64,000 nt of DNA from positions 34,842-98,841 of the forward strand of contig JAVKHQ010000007.1 of the NCBI GenBank assembly GCA_031459875.1, in the 5' to 3' direction. Position numbers and translations under genes: made by a program. The notes beneath the pieces were generated by a model, which did not search any database, was not told the origin of the DNA, and was given only the letters and a program-made list of their open reading frames with translations. The number at the start of each line of letters is the position of its first letter. Position 1 is the stretch's first letter. Source of the stretch: Candidatus Fervidifonticultor sextus. GTDB lineage: Bacteria; Sysuimicrobiota; Sysuimicrobiia; Sysuimicrobiales; Humicultoraceae. This document shows, one piece after another, positions 48,131 through 55,943 of this stretch.

Positions 48131-48191
48131 ACAGCACCCCGGGGTCAGGGGTGGGGCGGAGACCTCACCCCCGACCCTGCCCCGAGTCGCC

Positions 48192-49208
48192 GTGCGGCGG
48201 CCCGCCACCGCGACCCCCCTCTGGCGCGACGCCCGTGTGCTGGGCGTTACGGCCCAGATCCTGTTCGTCGTGCTCCTGGTCGCCGGGACCTGGGGCGCGA
48301 AGGCGGCCGTCGAGCGCAGCATGCTCCGGCAGAACATCCGCCTCGATTGGGGCTTCTTCAGGCATTCCGCCGGCTTCGATCTCACGGCCCTCACCTGGAC
48401 GATTGATCTGAACAGACTCAGCCTCAAGCGCTACAGTCCTGAAGATTCCTACGCGGAGGCCATGATCGCCGGCCTGTTCAACACCATCAAGGTCGCGATC
48501 CTGGGGATCGTGCTGGCACTCGGGCTGGGCCTGATGGTGGGCGTGGCCCGCCTATCGCGCAACTGGCTGGTCAACCGGCTGGCGCTGGGCTACGTCGAGG
48601 TCCTGCGCAACACGCCGCTGTTGGTACAGCTCTTCTTCTGGTATTTCGGCGTCTTCCTCCAACTGCCGACCGGCGCCGCCACCAGTCCACCGATCACCTT
48701 CTTGGGCGGGTTCGTCGTGCTCACCAACCGCGGGCTCGCCGTCGGCGGGGTCCTGACCGAACGCTTCGGCCGCCAGATGGTCGACGGCGGGTTCCAGATG
48801 ACCAGCGAGTTCTCGGCGCTGGTGGTCGGACTGGCCGTCTACACATCGGCCTTCATCGCCGAGATCGTCCGCGGCGGCATCCTGGCCATCCCCCGGGGTC
48901 AGATGGAGGCCGCCCGCAGCCTGGGGCTGAACTACCGCCAGGCCCTGCGATGGGTGGTCCTGCCCCAGGCCCTGCGGATCATCATTCCCCCGCTGGGCAA
49001 CCAGTTCCTGAACCTGACGAAGAACAGCAGCCTGGCCATCGGCGTGGGCTTCGCCGACATGTTGACCTCGGCCATGACGGTGGCGAGCCAGTCGTTCCGG
49101 GCGCTGGAGACCTTCACGTTCGTCACCCTGGCCTACCTAGCCCTCTCGCTGACGATCTCGGCCGTGCTGAACCTGGTGCGGGCCCGGCTGGCTCTGCCCG
49201 GCGGATAG
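48192..49208 (+). CDS. Amino acid ABC permease (AapQ-like)
   Basis: RNTPLLVQLFFWY, AFIAEIVRGGI, NLTKNSSL. Confidence 0.93.
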   Translation: MRRPATATPLWRDARVLGVTAQILFVVLLVAGTWGAKAAVERSMLRQNIRLDWGFFRHSAGFDLTALTWTIDLNRLSLKRYSPEDSYAEAMIAGLFNTIKVAILGIVLALGLGLMVGVARLSRNWLVNRLALGYVEVLRNTPLLVQLFFWYFGVFLQLPTGAATSPPITFLGGFVVLTNRGLAVGGVLTERFGRQMVDGGFQMTSEFSALVVGLAVYTSAFIAEIVRGGILAIPRGQMEAARSLGLNYRQALRWVVLPQALRIIIPPLGNQFLNLTKNSSLAIGVGFADMLTSAMTVASQSFRALETFTFVTLAYLALSLTISAVLNLVRARLALPGG

Positions 49209-50225
49209 ATGTCCTCACCCGCGGTGCTGCTGGCACCCCCCGAACGGCGATCCGCACCGCTGGAGTGGCTGCGCCGCAATCTCTTCGACGGGTGGCTGAA
49301 CACCGTCCTCACCGTCCTGGTGGCGGCATGCCTCCTCTGGACGGCCTGCCTGATCGGGCGGTGGGCGGCAGGCGCGCACTGGGATGTGGTGACCCGCAAC
49401 CTGCGCCTCTGGGCGGTCGGCCTGCTGCCGCTGGCCCACGTGTGGCGGGCGTGGTGGGCCGGGGGGCTGGTGGCGACGGCAGCCCTGCTGACGGTGATCG
49501 GCGTTCGCGCTCGGGTGCAGCCCCGGGCGCTGGTCGGCCTCTGGGTCGGTACGGTCGTCGCGGTGGTCTGGCTCTTCTCGCCGATGCGACTCGACCAGGT
49601 CGGCGGGCTGTACCTGACGCTGTTGCTGGCGGTCGTCTCCATCGGCGCGTCGTTCCCCGTCGGCGTGCTGGTGGGCATCGGCCGCACCAGCCGGCTGCCG
49701 GTGGTGCGGCTGTTCTGCACGGCCTACATTGAGGGCATCCGCGGCATCCCCCTGATCACCGTCCTCCTGTGGTTCTCGATCTTCGTCAGCCTGCTCTCGG
49801 GGGAAGCCATGCCGCGCGTGGCGCGGGCGATGATCGGCATGACGGTCTTCGCCTCGGCCTACGTGGGGGAGATCATGCGCGCGGGCATCCAGTCGGTCCC
49901 GCGCGGTCACGTGGAGGCCGCCAGGGCGCTGGGGCTGTCGGGCTGGCAGACGATGCTGTTCATCGTGCTCCCGCAGGCCTTCAAGAACATGATCCCGGCC
50001 CTGGTGGGGCAGTTCATCAGCCTGTTCAAGGACACCTCGCTGACCGTCATCATCGGGCTCTCGGACCTGCTGGGGGTGGGCCGGTCGCTGCTGGCGCTGA
50101 CCGAGTACCTGCACGACGTGCGGGAGGTGTACGTCTTCGCGCTGGTTGTCTATTTCGTGTTTTCCTATACGATGTCGTATGGGAGCCGGGTGCTCGAGGG
50201 AAAGCTCGGCCTGGGAGAGCGGTAG
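49209..50225 (+). CDS. Amino acid ABC permease (AapM-like)
   Basis: [24 protein letters not shown]. Confidence 0.93.
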
Positions 50226-50227
50226 CC

Positions 50228-50989
<762 letters not shown>

Positions 50990-50992
50990 CGC

Positions 50993-51883
50993 ATGATCAT
51001 CGACGCCCACGTGCACCTGATGACCGCCGGGATGTTCCGACGCCAGCAGCAGCGCGCCGCTGCCAGCCGGCAGGCCGCGCGCGAGCGGGCCCGCGTCCGG
51101 GGCATGACCTTCCAGGAGCGCATCGTGCAACTGGAGGCCGTGCCGCTGGCCGAGCAGGCCAGGATGTGGCTGGAAGGCTTCGACCGGGCGGGCGTCCACG
51201 CCGGCGTCTTCATCGCGATGGGGGAGGTCAACGATGAGCTGGCGGACTTCTGCCGGTTCGACCCCCACCGCCTCTACGGGTGCGGGTCGCTACTGGACCC
51301 CACCCATCCCGACGCGGCGCGGGAGGTCCGCCGTTTCCCGCAGTTAGGTCTGCGGGCGCTGAAACTCTACGCGCCGGCCTACCGCCACCACCTCAACGAC
51401 CGCCTGTTCTACCCGGTCTACGAGGCTGCCGCCGAGTGCGGCCTGCCCATCATCGTGCACTTCGGGATCACGGTGGGGACCTTCTACGATCTGACCTACG
51501 CGAACCCGCTGGCGCTGTCGGCGCCGGGCCGGGACTTCCCGGAGATCACGTTCGTCGTCGCCCACTTCGGCGCCGGGTTCCTCCGCGAGACGATGTTCCT
51601 GGCATACCACACCGAGAACATCTGCGTGGACACCTCGGGCACGAACAACTGGCGCCTCTACGTGCCGGGCGAACCCTCGCTGGAGCAGGTTTTCCAGGAT
51701 GCGCTGCGCGCGTTTGGCCCTCAGCGGATCCTGTTCGGCACCGACTCCACGTGGTTTTCGGGGTACCGGCAGCCGATCGTGGAGGAACAGGCGGCCGTCT
51801 TGAACCGGCTCGCCCTCTCCGATGCCGACCGGGACCTGATCCTGGCCGGCAACGCCCGCCGCGTCTTCGGGATCAGGGACTGA
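50993..51883 (+). CDS. Amidohydrolase_2 family protein
   Basis: IDAHVH, VHFG, AHFG, FGTDS, GNARR. Confidence 0.9.
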   Translation: MIIDAHVHLMTAGMFRRQQQRAAASRQAARERARVRGMTFQERIVQLEAVPLAEQARMWLEGFDRAGVHAGVFIAMGEVNDELADFCRFDPHRLYGCGSLLDPTHPDAAREVRRFPQLGLRALKLYAPAYRHHLNDRLFYPVYEAAAECGLPIIVHFGITVGTFYDLTYANPLALSAPGRDFPEITFVVAHFGAGFLRETMFLAYHTENICVDTSGTNNWRLYVPGEPSLEQVFQDALRAFGPQRILFGTDSTWFSGYRQPIVEEQAAVLNRLALSDADRDLILAGNARRVFGIRD

Positions 51884-52258: not shown

Positions 52259-52461
52259 AGACGGTCGGGCTCCCGCTCCACCGACGTGTCGATACCCTTG
52301 AGGAACCCGCGCGCCCGCGTGATCGGCTCCAGGGGGATCAGTTCGATGCGGCCCTCGTAGGGGATGACTTGGACTTTCTGGCCTGGCCGGAGCCCCAGCG
52401 ATCGTCGAACGCGGAGGGGAATGACCACTTGGTACTTGGGCGAGATGGTGGATGTTTCCAT
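52255..52461 (-). CDS. AbrB/MazE-family antitoxin
   Basis: TISPKYQVVIP..VRRSLGLRPGQ; GTAA-tacg-TTAC palindrome upstream. Confidence 0.92.
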   Translation of the reverse strand: METSTISPKYQVVIPLRVRRSLGLRPGQKVQVIPYEGRIELIPLEPITRARGFLKGIDTSVEREPDRL

Positions 52462-52662
52462 ACGGCTCTCCTATCGAACAATAAATCGTAATACGTTACT
52501 CTATCACTATTTGGCCCCACGGTCAACCGCGGCGCCACACCGCGCTTCAAGCGCGCCTGGGACGGGCATATCACGGGGCGAACGTGCTCACGCCAGAAGG
52601 CGCGTGGGGCCCCAATTGCAGGATTCCCCACGAGGACGCAAAACTACGCCTGTGACCACGCC

Positions 52663-53802
52663 ATGGCCATTGCGGGCTCGACCGGGACGCGGCCTCGCAG
52701 CGGGCCGAAGCTCTACCACCTGGCCGATGTGCGGCTGGGCGGGGCCTTCCCGTTCCTGGGAGCAGCCGGCGGGGCGCATCGCGGCCAGGTGCGCGAGACG
52801 TTTGTCCGCGCCATCGACCAGGCCCTGGAGCTTGGGCCCGCGCTGGTCCTGATCACCGGCAACCTCTTCGGCACCCCCTTCCCTTCCCGGGATCTGGCCG
52901 AGTTCGCCCGCGGGCAGATCGCCCGCCTGGCGCAGGCCGGCATCTCCACGTGCGTGGCGGCCGGCGCCCTCGACGCGATCTACGAGCGGCACTACGCCGC
53001 GGGCGCGCTGGCCGACCAGGACGGGGTGACCGTCTTTCCGCCCACGCCCAAGGCCGTTGACCTGCCGGGCCTGGACCTCAGGGTGGTGGGCGCGTCCTGG
53101 GGGTCGGCGCCGGTCCAGGCGGATTTCCTCTCCGCCATCGCCTCCCAGCGGACGCACCGCCACCTGGTCGGCGCGTGCTACCTCCAGTGGCCCGAAGCCG
53201 AGGACGGCCTGCGGGCGCTTCGCCGGCAGATCGCGGCCTCCGGCGCCACCTACCTGGCCCTGGGCGGATCCGCGGTGCGGCGCAACGTCTCCACGGAGAA
53301 GGTGGCCGCCTGGTGTCCGGGCGCCCCGGAGATGGTGGTCCCCGAGGAGGGCGAGGGGTCACCGCTGCTGGTGACGCTGGGGGACGAGCCGGAGGTCACG
53401 CCGAAGCCCGTGGCACGGCGCCGGTTCGCCAGGTTCACCCTGCAGCCGATGGCCTACGCGACGACGGAGGACCTCGCCAGCGCCATCCGCGCCCTGGGTG
53501 ATCCCCATCTGGCCGCCACCGTGCGTCTCGCCGGGACGTCCCGGATCAACCAGTTCATTGACGTCGCGGAGCTGCGCGAGCGACTGGTCCACGAGTTCCT
53601 GGCCCTCGACATCGTAGACGAGTCGCGTCCCAACCTGGAAGACCTCAACGCGACGGTCTACCCGGAACTCTCGGTGGCCGGCAGATTCCTGGCGGTCGCG
53701 CGGGCCGAGATGGAGCGTGCCGGGTCGGAGGAGGCCCGCCGCAGGATCGGGGCGGCGCTGCGGTTGGGCCTCGCTCTGCTGGAAGGGCGGAGGCCGACGT
53801 GA
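52663..53802 (+). CDS. SbcD/Mre11/YhaO-like metallophosphoesterase-fold protein, metal ligands lost
   Basis: Motif frames kept but altered: HLADVRLG, ITGNLF, AGALD, GACYL, YLALGGSA, PGAPE. Confidence 0.8.
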   Translation: MAIAGSTGTRPRSGPKLYHLADVRLGGAFPFLGAAGGAHRGQVRETFVRAIDQALELGPALVLITGNLFGTPFPSRDLAEFARGQIARLAQAGISTCVAAGALDAIYERHYAAGALADQDGVTVFPPTPKAVDLPGLDLRVVGASWGSAPVQADFLSAIASQRTHRHLVGACYLQWPEAEDGLRALRRQIAASGATYLALGGSAVRRNVSTEKVAAWCPGAPEMVVPEEGEGSPLLVTLGDEPEVTPKPVARRRFARFTLQPMAYATTEDLASAIRALGDPHLAATVRLAGTSRINQFIDVAELRERLVHEFLALDIVDESRPNLEDLNATVYPELSVAGRFLAVARAEMERAGSEEARRRIGAALRLGLALLEGRRPT

Positions 53803-55943
53803 CCATCACCCAGCTCCGGCTGCGCCGGTTCAAGAAGTTCGCCGACTGGTCGGCCGCCTTCGCGCCCGGCCTCACGGTGATCCGCGGCCCCAACGAGGCC
53901 GGGAAGACGACGCTCATGGAGGCTCTGTTCGAAGGGCTGTTCAGGGACCCGGGCCGCGGCGAGGCCACCGCCCGGTTGAGGTCGTGGGGGGAGCAGCGGC
54001 TGGGCGAGATCACCATCGACCTCCAGGTGCGGGGGGTGCGCTACCTGCTGCGCAAGGACCTGGAGGCGGGCACGATCCTCCTGCAGAGCGAAGACGGGCG
54101 CGACCGGCTGGAGAATCCCCGCGACGTGCAGCGCCGCCTCCTGGAATGGATCGGACTGGCCAGCGAGGCCGCCTACCGCTCCACCGCCTTCGTGGCGCAA
54201 GGGGACATCGCCCGCGTGAGCGAGGACCGCCGCCTGCTCTCCACCCACCTCTCGCGCATCCTCAGCGGAGCCGGGGTGGAGACCGTCCAGCAGGCCCTGC
54301 AGTGGCTGGCCGACCAGCGCGCACGGCTGACCGCCCCTCCGCCGGGCGGGCGGACCCTGGCCGAGCGGATCGCCGACCTGCGGGCCCAGCAGACGGTCCT
54401 GCGGCAGCGTGATGAGCGCATGCAGCGCCACCGCATCGAGCTGCGCGAGGTCACCCGACGCCTGGAAGAGGTCGAGCGGGAAGCGGCCGAGCGGACCGAA
54501 CTGGTGCGCGTCGCCAAATGGGCGGCCGATCTCCAGCGCCGCGAACAGGCCCTGATCGAGGAGGAGGCCGCCACCCGGGACTACCTGGTGCGCGCCGAGT
54601 CCCTGCTGGCGCGCCTGGCCGCGCTGGATGCCGACCTGGCTGAATTCTCCACGCAGCAGGAAGCGCTGATCGCCGAGTTGTTCCACGCCCGCCGCCAGTA
54701 CCTTCAGCTCGAGTCCAACCTGCAGGCTGCCGGGCAGCAGGCCGAGCGCGAAGAGCGCACGCTGGAGCACCTGGCCACACGCCACCACAATGCGATGCGC
54801 CTGGGCAGCCTGGGGTGGACGCTGGCGGGCAGCGGACTGATCGGGGTCGTCGGCGGCGGCCTCATCGTGGCGCTCATCAACTTCCACTGGATCGGATGGG
54901 CGCTGCTCGGCATCGGCGCCGGCGTCCTGCTGATCGGGATGCGCTACCGCGGCCGGATCAGCGAGGCCGGGGCCGACTACCGCAACCAGGAGCAGCGCGT
55001 GCTCGACCTGCGGCGCCGCATCGAGGTCATGCAGCGCCAGCTTGCCGAAGCGCAGGAGATGGTCTCGACCCGGCTGCAGGCGGTGGGCGGCGCCAGCCTG
55101 GAGGATGTGGAGCGCCGCTTCTCCCGGTACATGGACCTCCTGCGCGAGCGCGAGGAGGTCCGCGCCTCCCTGCGCCAGATCCGGGGCGCCGACCCCAGAG
55201 CCGCCCTGGAGACCCGGCTCAGGGAGATCGCCGAGGAACTGGCCAGCGTCCGCGCGACCATGGACACGTTGCCCAAGGCCGCCCGGAAGGGGCCGGTAGC
55301 CGCGGCCGAACAGCTGGAGCAGCAGGCCCGGGCGCTGGCCGCCGAACTCCAGGGCCTGCGCGAGCGGCGGGCCCGGCTGGAGGGCGTGCTGGACGAACTC
55401 CGGGACCGCGGCGATGAGGGCGCGCGGCTGGAGGAGGAGATCGCCAGCCTCCAGTCCCGGATGTCGCGCGAGCGGCAGGCCCTGGAGGTCGTGGAGTTGA
55501 CGATGCGGCTGCTGGAGGAGGCGCGGACGCTGTCGGTCTACCCGGCGCGCGAACTGCTCGAACGGCGGGCCGGGGAGTACCTGGCCATGGCCACGGACAG
55601 AGCGTACGGCCGGGTGGCCGTGGACGAACGCGCCCTGCGGCCGCAGGTCTGGGTCCCGTCGGCCGGGGCGTGGAAGGACGCCTCGGAGTTGAGCCAGGCG
55701 ACCAGCGACCTGCTCTACCTCTGCCTGCGGCTGGCCCTGCTGGACGTCATCACGGCGGAGCGCCGGCCCCCCCTCTTCCTCGACGAACCCTTCGCCCACC
55801 TGGACGACCAGCGTCGCCGGGCCGTCCTCCCGCTGCTGGCCATCGCCGCCAGGGAGCGCCAGGTGGTGCTCTTCACCTGCTGGCCGGACTACGACCAGGT
55901 GGCAGAGAAAGTCGTCGTCTTGGACCGCGCCGCCGTCCCGTGA
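53799..55943 (+). CDS. SbcC/Rad50/YhaN-like coiled-coil ATPase with central TM hairpin
   Basis: GPNEAGKTT, FVAQG, LSQATSDLLYL, FLDEPF, FTC; long coiled coils; two hydrophobic helices mid-protein. Confidence 0.9.
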   Translation: MTITQLRLRRFKKFADWSAAFAPGLTVIRGPNEAGKTTLMEALFEGLFRDPGRGEATARLRSWGEQRLGEITIDLQVRGVRYLLRKDLEAGTILLQSEDGRDRLENPRDVQRRLLEWIGLASEAAYRSTAFVAQGDIARVSEDRRLLSTHLSRILSGAGVETVQQALQWLADQRARLTAPPPGGRTLAERIADLRAQQTVLRQRDERMQRHRIELREVTRRLEEVEREAAERTELVRVAKWAADLQRREQALIEEEAATRDYLVRAESLLARLAALDADLAEFSTQQEALIAELFHARRQYLQLESNLQAAGQQAEREERTLEHLATRHHNAMRLGSLGWTLAGSGLIGVVGGGLIVALINFHWIGWALLGIGAGVLLIGMRYRGRISEAGADYRNQEQRVLDLRRRIEVMQRQLAEAQEMVSTRLQAVGGASLEDVERRFSRYMDLLREREEVRASLRQIRGADPRAALETRLREIAEELASVRATMDTLPKAARKGPVAAAEQLEQQARALAAELQGLRERRARLEGVLDELRDRGDEGARLEEEIASLQSRMSRERQALEVVELTMRLLEEARTLSVYPARELLERRAGEYLAMATDRAYGRVAVDERALRPQVWVPSAGAWKDASELSQATSDLLYLCLRLALLDVITAERRPPLFLDEPFAHLDDQRRRAVLPLLAIAARERQVVLFTCWPDYDQVAEKVVVLDRAAVP

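Follow-up and report, generated by a model that had tools for sequence, protein, structure and literature searches.

Which tasks of the Mre11-Rad50 complex need cutting has long been probed with nuclease-dead laboratory mutants of Mre11. Inactive members of the calcineurin-like phosphoesterases also serve as scaffolds, such as Vps29 of retromer and the B subunits of replicative DNA polymerases, which keep the fold, have lost the ligands and bind other proteins; these belong to unrelated complexes, and to our knowledge an Mre11-type partner of a Rad50-like ATPase is not among them. The SbcE/SbcF (YhaN/YhaO) pair of Bacillus subtilis contributes to double-strand-break repair and transformation and gathers at the poles of competent cells; YhaO is described as a predicted nuclease highly similar to SbcD, and the central domain of SbcE is partly hydrophobic, insoluble on its own and not called a membrane anchor (PMC2811018). 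In the Lamassu system, according to a preprint, LmuC is without a nuclease domain, LmuB keeps the zinc hook, and the damage is done by a separate effector, LmuA (bioRxiv 10.1101/2025.03.14.643221). The subject of this analysis is a two-gene locus in a 64,000 nt stretch of DNA (the window, approximately 70% G+C) on contig JAVKHQ010000007.1 of Candidatus Fervidifonticultor sextus (assembly GCA_031459875.1), in which an open reading frame (ORF) for a 379 amino acid (aa) nuclease-like protein is directly followed by one for a 714 aa Rad50-like ATPase. The source organism is a hot-spring bacterium.

The 379 aa protein retains one of the seven metal ligands of Mre11, and the same loss extends through its close relatives. 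The pair very probably forms a functional, non-nucleolytic complex. The fuller description that is preferred here, drawn from sequence comparison and structural models, is that it is probably a selection-maintained pseudo-nuclease scaffold within a membrane-tethered, ATP-gated, DNA-holding complex of the SbcF/SbcE branch; that the job of the pair is the holding or tethering of DNA at the membrane is advanced more tentatively, as something short of an even chance. Nature appears to have run the nuclease-dead Mre11 experiment and kept the result.

The locus resembles SbcE/SbcF in placing an SbcD-like gene beside an SMC-like ATPase gene, and in the ATPase being without CxxC and having a central hydrophobic domain (PMC2811018). 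The window ATPase also carries the PF13514 AAA_27 domain, and source databases name members of its cluster 'uncharacterized protein YhaN'; the link to B. subtilis is through AAA_27, these names and the published description (PMC2811018), rather than direct alignment. It differs from YhaO/YhaN in that the nuclease partner is without a metal site, and from B. subtilis in that the latter also has SbcCD, whereas the window's genome does not. With Mre11-Rad50 and SbcCD it shares the folds of both subunits, the Walker A, Q-loop, Walker B and D-loop motifs, and C-terminal helices modelled on the base of the coiled coil; by contrast, it has no metal site, a hydrophobic hairpin in place of the zinc hook and no H-loop His. 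The likeness to the MC1 type of Lamassu LmuB-LmuC lies in the combination of a Rad50-like ATPase with a non-cutting, Mre11-derived subunit (bioRxiv 10.1101/2025.03.14.643221), but the window pair keeps the whole Mre11 fold with a dead site, and the apex of its coiled coil is a hydrophobic hairpin. No inactive Mre11, SbcD or YhaO homologue paired with a Rad50-like ATPase was found in a literature search that had most subscription journals outside its scope. New here are a dead state that spans the clade, a series of erosion stages and the disappearance of the active paralogue, within the little-studied SbcE/SbcF (YhaN/YhaO) kind of system.

The positions of the lost site can be equated with the ligand columns of Mre11 because of the alignment with canonical relatives and a bridging-profile match to the Mre11 of Pyrococcus furiosus. 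This profile, A3, comprising 34 sequences that span dead, partly eroded and canonical relatives, matched 1ii7_A with E = 2.2e-21, bringing HLADIHLG, IAGDLFHS, GNHD and ALGHIH into register. Eight positions were scored, the seven metal ligands and the catalytic His, and the window protein keeps one of them: D22 is the sole ligand left, the catalytic His has become Leu (L103), and the non-canonical residues at the remaining seven positions are R24, N67, A102, L103, Y173, G202 and A204. A sequence-only reading of this DNA had listed the replacements DVR, GN, GALD and GGSA, with the first Asp alone surviving, and both the alignment and the bridging profile bear this out.

At E ≤ 1, the 379 aa protein is matched by no model of Pfam, NCBIfam or PADLOC, and a single-sequence search of the PDB returned chance matches only (best E 0.48). 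An AlphaFold model built from 28 homologues (mean predicted local distance difference test score, pLDDT, 83.5) nevertheless had Mre11/SbcD as its best Foldseek match in the PDB (3av0_A, E 1.5e-14), with 5dny, 4tug, 1ii7, 6s85_B and 4lty among the further matches and 138 at E ≤ 0.001. In this model the protein keeps the whole Mre11 architecture, consisting of the phosphoesterase core, the capping domain and C-terminal coiled-coil-binding helices. The latter, at residues 338-352 and 356-373, contain the sequence AALRLGL..LEG, invariant in the 28-sequence alignment, and are predicted to resemble the Rad50-binding domain of Mre11.

In a word-indexed search covering 5.8 billion clusters, 70 homologues with 54-100% identity to the 379 aa protein were obtained at E ≤ 0.001, the named ones being Armatimonadota or 'bacterium' metagenome-assembled genomes (MAGs). 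None has a precomputed Pfam domain and all 70 are intact, without stops or frameshifts. When all were aligned and counted over those sequences with a residue at each column, the motif I His position was Arg in 65/66, the motif II Asp position was Asn in 65/66, and the position of D22 held Asp in 59 and Glu in 3 of 63. The ligand Asn of motif III was replaced by Pro in 60 of 68 sequences (otherwise Ala in 5, His in 2 and Ser in 1), and the catalytic His by Leu in 65, Met in 2 and Phe in 1 of the same number. In motif V (n = 70), the first His position is Gly in 66, and the second is Pro in 57, Ala in 8, Ser in 3 and Thr in 2. The motif IV His had also been described as replaced; this holds for Tyr173 of the window protein but not throughout the clade, as the position (n = 70) is occupied by His in 23, Tyr in 22, Cys in 14, Ala in 5, Ser in 4 and Phe in 2. 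Names in source databases such as 'DNA repair exonuclease SbcCD nuclease subunit' assert for the dead clade an activity that its sequences no longer support. One dead-clade protein, at L046 1465-2745 (genome G028), matches the clade profile in two pieces (1-252 and 242-379) within a single 427 aa frame, which points to an insertion or local duplication of approximately 25 residues.

It could be supposed that the protein is still a nuclease or phosphoesterase working through a reduced or alternative site, either binding one metal through D22, N67 and a nearby His, or assisted by Arg. The conservation of D22, N67, D104 and H19 would suit such a site, as would the His found at motif IV in some members of the clade, and partly eroded paralogues in related genera, which keep D-x-H in 5/6, G-D in 5/6 and one motif V His, may retain one metal site. 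Nevertheless, the residues H10, D49, N84, H85, H206 and H208 of 1ii7 correspond in the dead clade to Arg, Asn, Pro/Ala, Leu, Gly and Pro/Ala, of which Pro, Ala, Leu and Gly can neither bind metal nor serve as a general acid; there is no Pfam Metallophos signal at E ≤ 1, and motif IV is unconstrained, with six different residues. A residual catalytic function is therefore regarded as highly improbable.

The sequences also bear on whether the gene is a decaying remnant, heading to loss after the pair ceased to function. By the method of Nei and Gojobori (NG86), the ratio of nonsynonymous to synonymous divergence (dN/dS) between the window pseudo-nuclease and 14 orthologues was 0.11-0.45, with 0.34 at a dS of 0.113 for the closest (93% identical); beyond this closest pair the ratios are rough, as dS lies at 0.7-1.6, near saturation. 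The same comparisons gave 0.15-0.41 for the ATPase and 0.13-0.26 for the neighbouring amidohydrolase, and the ATPase is more conserved than its nuclease-like partner. Decay would be compatible with the ratio of 0.34 against the closest relative exceeding those of the ATPase (0.18) and amidohydrolase (0.17), and with five genomes of the crown genera being without the pair. However, it sits poorly with 70 homologues free of stops and frameshifts, with 51 invariant columns in the 28-sequence alignment (some of them in clade-specific loops modelled at the ATPase interface), with ratios well below 1 in 14/14 comparisons and with the translational coupling having been kept, and is largely refuted, retaining hardly any credibility. 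Had close orthologues kept the ligands, recent decay in this one genome would have been indicated, as the sequence-only reading had foreseen; across the 70 homologues the loss is instead clade-wide. Judged from these comparisons, the ligand loss is not recent decay, being fixed across a whole Armatimonadota lineage, and the 379 aa protein is under purifying selection.

Both ORFs are present, as had been read from the sequence, and are coupled through a GTGA overlap that combines the TGA stop of the first with the GTG start of the second. Their association was modelled using the head and coiled-coil base of the ATPase (residues 1-230 and 520-714) against the whole 379 aa protein, alongside controls. 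The interaction score from predicted aligned errors (ipSAE) was 0.85 in 3/3 runs and 0.60 for the best control; the mark used is reached by 116/157 solved complexes and 2/215 mismatched pairs, a calibration that holds roughly only, as custom alignments were used. The runs share at least 85% of contacts, with partner pLDDT of at least 86. In these models, ATPase residues 535-586 provide the seat for the C-terminal helices (334-379), the contacts of lowest error being between residues 342-372 and ATPase 564-575, and three conserved loops (26-40, 70-78 and 107-117) reach the ATPase at residues 155-173 and 205-216. Structure prediction of the pair, one of the checks proposed when the locus was first noticed, thereby supports the view that the pseudo-nuclease still binds the ATPase.

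The ATPase itself matches the Pfam families AAA_23 (43.8 bits), SMC_N (42 bits) and AAA_27/PF13514 (36.4 bits, cut-off 22), and scores 95.4 bits with NCBIfam Rad50 models, far below their cut-off of 700. Its AlphaFold model (pLDDT 84.4) has Rad50 as the best Foldseek match (7zr1_D, E 2.1e-18). Walker A, the Q-loop and Walker B are intact, and the CxxC zinc hook is absent, the only Cys residues being 642 and 694, all in agreement with the sequence-only reading; residues G30, P31, N32, G35, K36 and T38 of Walker A are invariant in 25 sequences. In place of a hook, residues 335-381 form a run of 47 residues without charge, and in the model a turn at 360-363, between helices 336-359 and 364-429, lies at the apex of the antiparallel coiled coil. 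The two transmembrane helices proposed for the apex are thus represented by two hydrophobic segments in the hydropathy plot and by a modelled apical turn, with the membrane anchor itself being predicted.

Relative to the head of Rad50 or SbcC, the ATPase has all motifs but the H-loop His (Trp695), and has Ala for Gly in the signature; both deviations are family-wide. This could be followed across 32 full-length ATPases, comprising 10 partners of dead-clade proteins, 5 of partly eroded proteins and 17 of canonical nucleases, one truncated row being uncounted and locus L060 dropped as its ATPase is split over two frames. The missing H-loop His, which had escaped the sequence-only reading, is common to all (His in 0/32), the column mostly holding Trp where the nuclease-like protein is dead or partly eroded and Arg where it is canonical; the distant relatives P0144 and P0168 keep the His. 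The signature LSQATSDL had been read correctly, but its description as altered needs qualifying, as it falls within the range of the family: Gly is replaced by Ala in 5/10 dead-clade ATPases, as well as at the unrelated locus L088, the change of Gln to Leu also occurs in partners of active nucleases, and the signature is variable in all groups. Similarly, hydrophobic segments like 335-381 are found in the partners of dead, partly eroded and canonical proteins, in all rows but one, and because they accompany active nucleases too, the predicted anchor is a trait of the family rather than part of the nuclease loss. Taking these alignments together, hairpin, variable signature and missing H-loop His are not linked to the death of the nuclease. 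The notion of a repurposed complex consequently stands in part: the subunit with the Mre11 fold is conserved, has no metal site and, in the models, binds an intact ATPase, but the hairpin, the missing hook and the signature cannot be tied to repurposing, since they are family-wide and also accompany active nucleases.

Two further observations concern the ATPases. The Walker B residues are D-E in 10/10 dead-clade and 5/5 partly eroded partners and D-D in 17/17 canonical partners (loci L058-L076), such that the more orthodox form sits with the dead and partly eroded nucleases. At L060 2611-5144 (G009), the ATPase of a canonical nuclease is split over two overlapping frames, matching the profile at 1-460 and 420-712, which may represent a frameshift, an assembly error or the onset of decay; G009 also carries a partly eroded pair.

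Under the preferred reading, two ATPases and two pseudo-nuclease subunits would form an assembly like Mre11(2)-Rad50(2). The Gly-rich hairpins would hold it in the cytoplasmic membrane, where they might also dimerise the arms. ATP binding would close the ATPase heads on DNA, with the dead subunit acting solely as a dimerising, gate-keeping scaffold, a role that genuine Mre11 also has. DNA ends, or incoming or broken DNA, would then be held or tethered at the membrane uncut, and left to other encoded enzymes, for example RecN, RecJ or Ku. The DNA sensing or signalling raised in the sequence-only reading is, like the tethering, conjectural. The complex might instead be a membrane machine unrelated to DNA, engaged in membrane remodelling or in scaffolding or regulating an envelope process, with loss of the nuclease site reflecting a change of substrate. 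With the nuclease dead, the sequences offer nothing that links the complex to DNA, its anchor is conserved, and the neighbouring genes are metabolic or regulatory; against this, both subunits come structurally closest to machines that act on DNA ends, a full nuclease site accompanies the same anchor in the canonical paralogues of sister genera, and SbcE/SbcF of B. subtilis, the only relative that has been studied, affects double-strand-break repair and transformation (PMC2811018). A role away from DNA is accordingly thought unlikely.

A separate, active copy of such a system had been suggested as something to look for in the same genome (3.05 Mb, 96.2% complete), and searches with the family profile, TIGR00619 (sbcD) and PF00149 found no other Mre11/SbcD-type gene in it. 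The family profile has one match; TIGR00619 matches neither the 379 aa gene nor anything else in the genome, although it detects canonical YhaO-like genes across the order at approximately 1e-12 to 1e-21; and of the four PF00149 matches, two are small phosphoesterases, one resembles a 5'-nucleotidase and one lies beside RNase Y. Above its cut-off, AAA_23 matches this ATPase, a RecN-like protein and two frames of SMC and RecF size, and the genome also encodes Ku and RecJ. TIGR00619 was likewise without a match in genera g1 (0/5 genomes), g2 (0/3), g6, g8 and g10 (0/1 each) and g11 (0/2, one unpublished), and true SbcD, scoring over the cut-off of this model, was found within the order only in g28 (3/3) and genome G071. 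An exception is genus g12, where 6/8 genomes have a different SbcD-like gene, with D-W-Q at motif I, the other motifs canonical and a Metallophos score of 43.5 bits, followed by a gene for an AAA_23 SMC-like ATPase. The presence of Ku was considered as a correlate of the dead state and rejected; it is found order-wide (80/94), yet in 0/8 genomes of g12, which has the dead pair.

The origin of the dead state can be examined across the 94 genomes of the window's order, in 83 of which the clade profile matched the pair or a paralogue, mostly with a single match. After two loci from genomes flagged as unpublished had been set aside from 50, 48 were tabulated, and in 48/48 the nuclease-like ORF is directly followed by the ATPase ORF. 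Families f3, f4, f5 and f6 (16 loci) are fully canonical, with D-x-H, G-D, G-N-H-D, the motif IV His and G-D-W-H, as are genera g3, g4, g5 and g7 of the window's own family, f1 (7 loci). A partly eroded copy is present at six loci, in genera g3, g4 and g5, where it is the second copy, and on one G022 contig; in addition to the motifs it mostly keeps, as given above, it has G-E-(A/S/N)-D or G-A-A-D for G-N-H-D, and G-G-(S/L)-H for G-D-W-H. Finally, the dead state is complete at the 19 loci of genera g1, g2, g6, g8, g9, g10, g11 and g12, for which the profile yields no canonical copy. Pfam Metallophos scores follow the same series: 48, 45.7 and 41.6 bits for three canonical proteins and 26.6 and 23.5 for two partly eroded ones, the window protein giving no match.

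In a tree of 71 rows, dead copies group with partly eroded ones in a single clade with a Shimodaira-Hasegawa-like approximate likelihood ratio test (SH-aLRT) value of 100. The partly eroded loci L078 and L081, the only two such loci with enough upstream sequence, share the ABC transporter and amidohydrolase found upstream of the window pair; canonical copies have none of the window's neighbours within the flanks examined. Our reading of these comparisons is that, at the amidohydrolase locus, a paralogous pair eroded stepwise, the canonical pair then being lost in the crown genera. The occurrence of dead, partly eroded and canonical pairs within one order, sometimes two per genome, provides a ready comparative set with which the function of SbcE/SbcF, the role of the membrane hairpin and the structural as opposed to catalytic role of Mre11 could be tested.

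Beyond the order, a search of the clade profile against 1.84 billion representatives gave 2939 proteins at E ≤ 0.001, of which 119 reached E ≤ 1e-30. Of the best 150 representatives, 147 were aligned, three rows of the window's own clade being left out, and exclusion of one fragment left 146 to be scored, with N/T accepted at the ligand Asn and H/D at the first motif V position, following the majority pattern of the family. All eight positions are kept in 116, confirming that the nuclease partner of such pairs is normally active, as had been stated; seven are kept in 12, six in 4, five in 5, four in 2, two in 3 and one in 4. From these counts, strongly eroded forms are a recurrent minority. 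One of them has a relative at locus L088, on a metagenome contig, where a 366 aa protein with D-I-R, G-N, N-R-D and G-G-Q is overlapped by the gene for a 714 aa YhaN-like ATPase with a mid-protein hydrophobic stretch and the signature LSRAT.

The combination of D-x-R and G-N is shared between the dead clade and a far-off lineage that includes L088 and the representatives P0247, P0286 and P0303. The free tree places the last three apart from the Armatimonadota dead clade, but an approximately unbiased (AU) test of joining the dead and partly eroded clade with P0247, P0286, P0303, P0305 and P0326, a group named after the tree was seen, did not reject a single clade (p 0.42), such that their separation in the free tree does not by itself demonstrate independent origins. 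As the partly eroded sisters mostly have D-x-H and G-D, parsimony nonetheless assigns the changes to Arg and Asn to the stem of the dead clade itself, and we infer that they were acquired at least twice, even if both lineages are related. These patterns invite the more speculative and, at present, rather doubtful proposal that the core job of the whole membrane-hairpin YhaO/YhaN family is a nuclease-independent, ATP-gated tether between DNA and membrane, the nuclease being optional and shed by lineages along a preferred route. This route would consist of His to Arg in motif I and Asp to Asn in motif II, with the Arg side chain filling the emptied metal pocket and so preserving the fold and the ATPase interface.

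Several observations weigh against the interpretation of the pair as a conserved, non-nucleolytic complex that is the only Mre11-type system of its hosts. As D22, N67, D104 and H19 remain, one-metal or otherwise non-canonical chemistry would be possible judging from sequence alone, and the 23/70 clade members with a motif IV His point the same way, and dS, at approximately 0.9 in distant pairs, is near saturation. No match to the family profile was obtained in genomes G006, G020, G021, G031 and G032 of the crown genera; because these include near-complete genomes such as G021 (98%) and G020 (91%), the pair appears dispensable in some crown lineages. Since Mre11-Rad50 complexes have been solved, the pass of the complex model may reflect likeness rather than binding. 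Owing to the second pair of g12, the statement that no other Mre11-type system is present is limited to the window's genus and some others. The clade of dead and partly eroded copies lies on a long stem (0.91), outside the order's canonical clade and with weak backbone support, and from these sequences duplication, transfer and long-branch attraction cannot be told apart as its origin. Lastly, a dead and a partly eroded copy occur together in G022 (59% complete, in 490 contigs), which could mean that the bin is mixed or that these copies are not simple orthologues.

Table 1. Features of the pseudo-nuclease/ATPase locus, its surroundings in the window and the second pair of genus g12
Feature	Position	Strand	Remarks
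Amino-acid ABC transporter operon (binding protein, two permeases, ATPase) running into Amidohydro_2 gene	window 47108-51883	+	PF04909, E 3.8e-35
VapBC PIN toxin, 124 aa	51884-52258	-	PF01850, E 6.2e-14
MazE/AbrB-type antitoxin, 68 aa	52255-52461	-	PF04014; start/stop overlap with toxin gene
Pseudo-nuclease ORF, 379 aa	52663..53802	+	Mre11/SbcD (YhaO/SbcF-type) fold, without metal site
Motif I remnant D22-V-R24 (canonical D-x-H)	52726..52734	+	Aligned to D8/H10 of 1ii7_A
Motif II remnant G66-N67 (canonical G-D)	52858..52863	+	
Motif III remnant G101-A-L-D104 (canonical G-N-H-D)	52963..52974	+	Ligand Asn and catalytic His both lost
Motif IV position Tyr173 (canonical His)	53179..53181	+	
Motif V remnant G201-G-S-A204 (canonical G-H/D-x-H)	53263..53274	+	
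C-terminal helix pair, residues 334-379	53662..53799	+	Predicted grip on base of ATPase coiled coil
YhaN/SbcE-type Rad50-like ABC ATPase ORF, 714 aa	53799..55943	+	
Walker A GPNEAGKT	53886..53909	+	
Q-loop Gln134	54198..54200	+	
Hydrophobic two-helix hairpin, residues 335-381	54801..54941	+	Predicted membrane anchor at coiled-coil apex
Signature LSQATSDL	55689..55712	+	
Walker B and D-loop LFLDEPFAHLD	55773..55805	+	
H-loop position T-C-W (Trp695)	55875..55883	+	Without His
Second SbcD-like/ATPase pair of g12	L086 896-2089 and 3-899	-	

The surroundings of the pair (Table 1) bear on a further possibility, namely that it is an anti-phage or anti-plasmid sensor akin to Lamassu or other Rad50-like systems, with the dead subunit as an adaptor like LmuC and the effector encoded elsewhere. 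The ATPase matches the PADLOC models mad3 (2.1e-19) and LmuB (3.5e-16), and some LmuC proteins, which have no nuclease domain, resemble Mre11 in its capping and Rad50-binding parts (bioRxiv 10.1101/2025.03.14.643221). However, these PADLOC matches are of the generic SMC-head kind, and the 379 aa protein matches no PADLOC model. At 14 related loci from named MAGs (Candidatus Fervidifonticultor, Candidatus Nitrosymbiomonas and Armatimonadota), the two genes of the pair are adjacent in 14/14, with the amidohydrolase upstream in 11/14, the remaining three having approximately 1 kb of upstream sequence or less; downstream lie either galT/galK or a two-component system of histidine kinase and response regulator. 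No third conserved gene adjoins the pair at these 14 loci, and no effector gene akin to LmuA was found adjacent at the loci compared. The pair thus occupies a conserved chromosomal position, not a defence island, and the defence role entertained in the sequence-only reading is very unlikely, given a gene pair that is near-universal in the order (83/94 genomes) and sits in a constant place among metabolic neighbours.

The block of ABC transporter and amidohydrolase genes upstream is conserved in the dead clade, as well as at the two partly eroded loci mentioned above. The amidohydrolase was considered as an effector of the pair and rejected, because it is coupled to the ABC transporter operon and separated from the pair in the window by the VapBC genes on the opposite strand. 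This VapBC pair intervenes in the window alone among the loci compared: the closest related locus, L013, has only approximately 180 bases in its place, and the other 13 loci gave no VapBC match. Given its absence from L013, the VapBC pair looks like a recent insertion. Directly upstream of the minus-strand antitoxin gene lies an AT-rich stretch of approximately 60 bases (window 52461-52520), in a genome of 70% G+C, which is possibly the promoter or operator of that gene.

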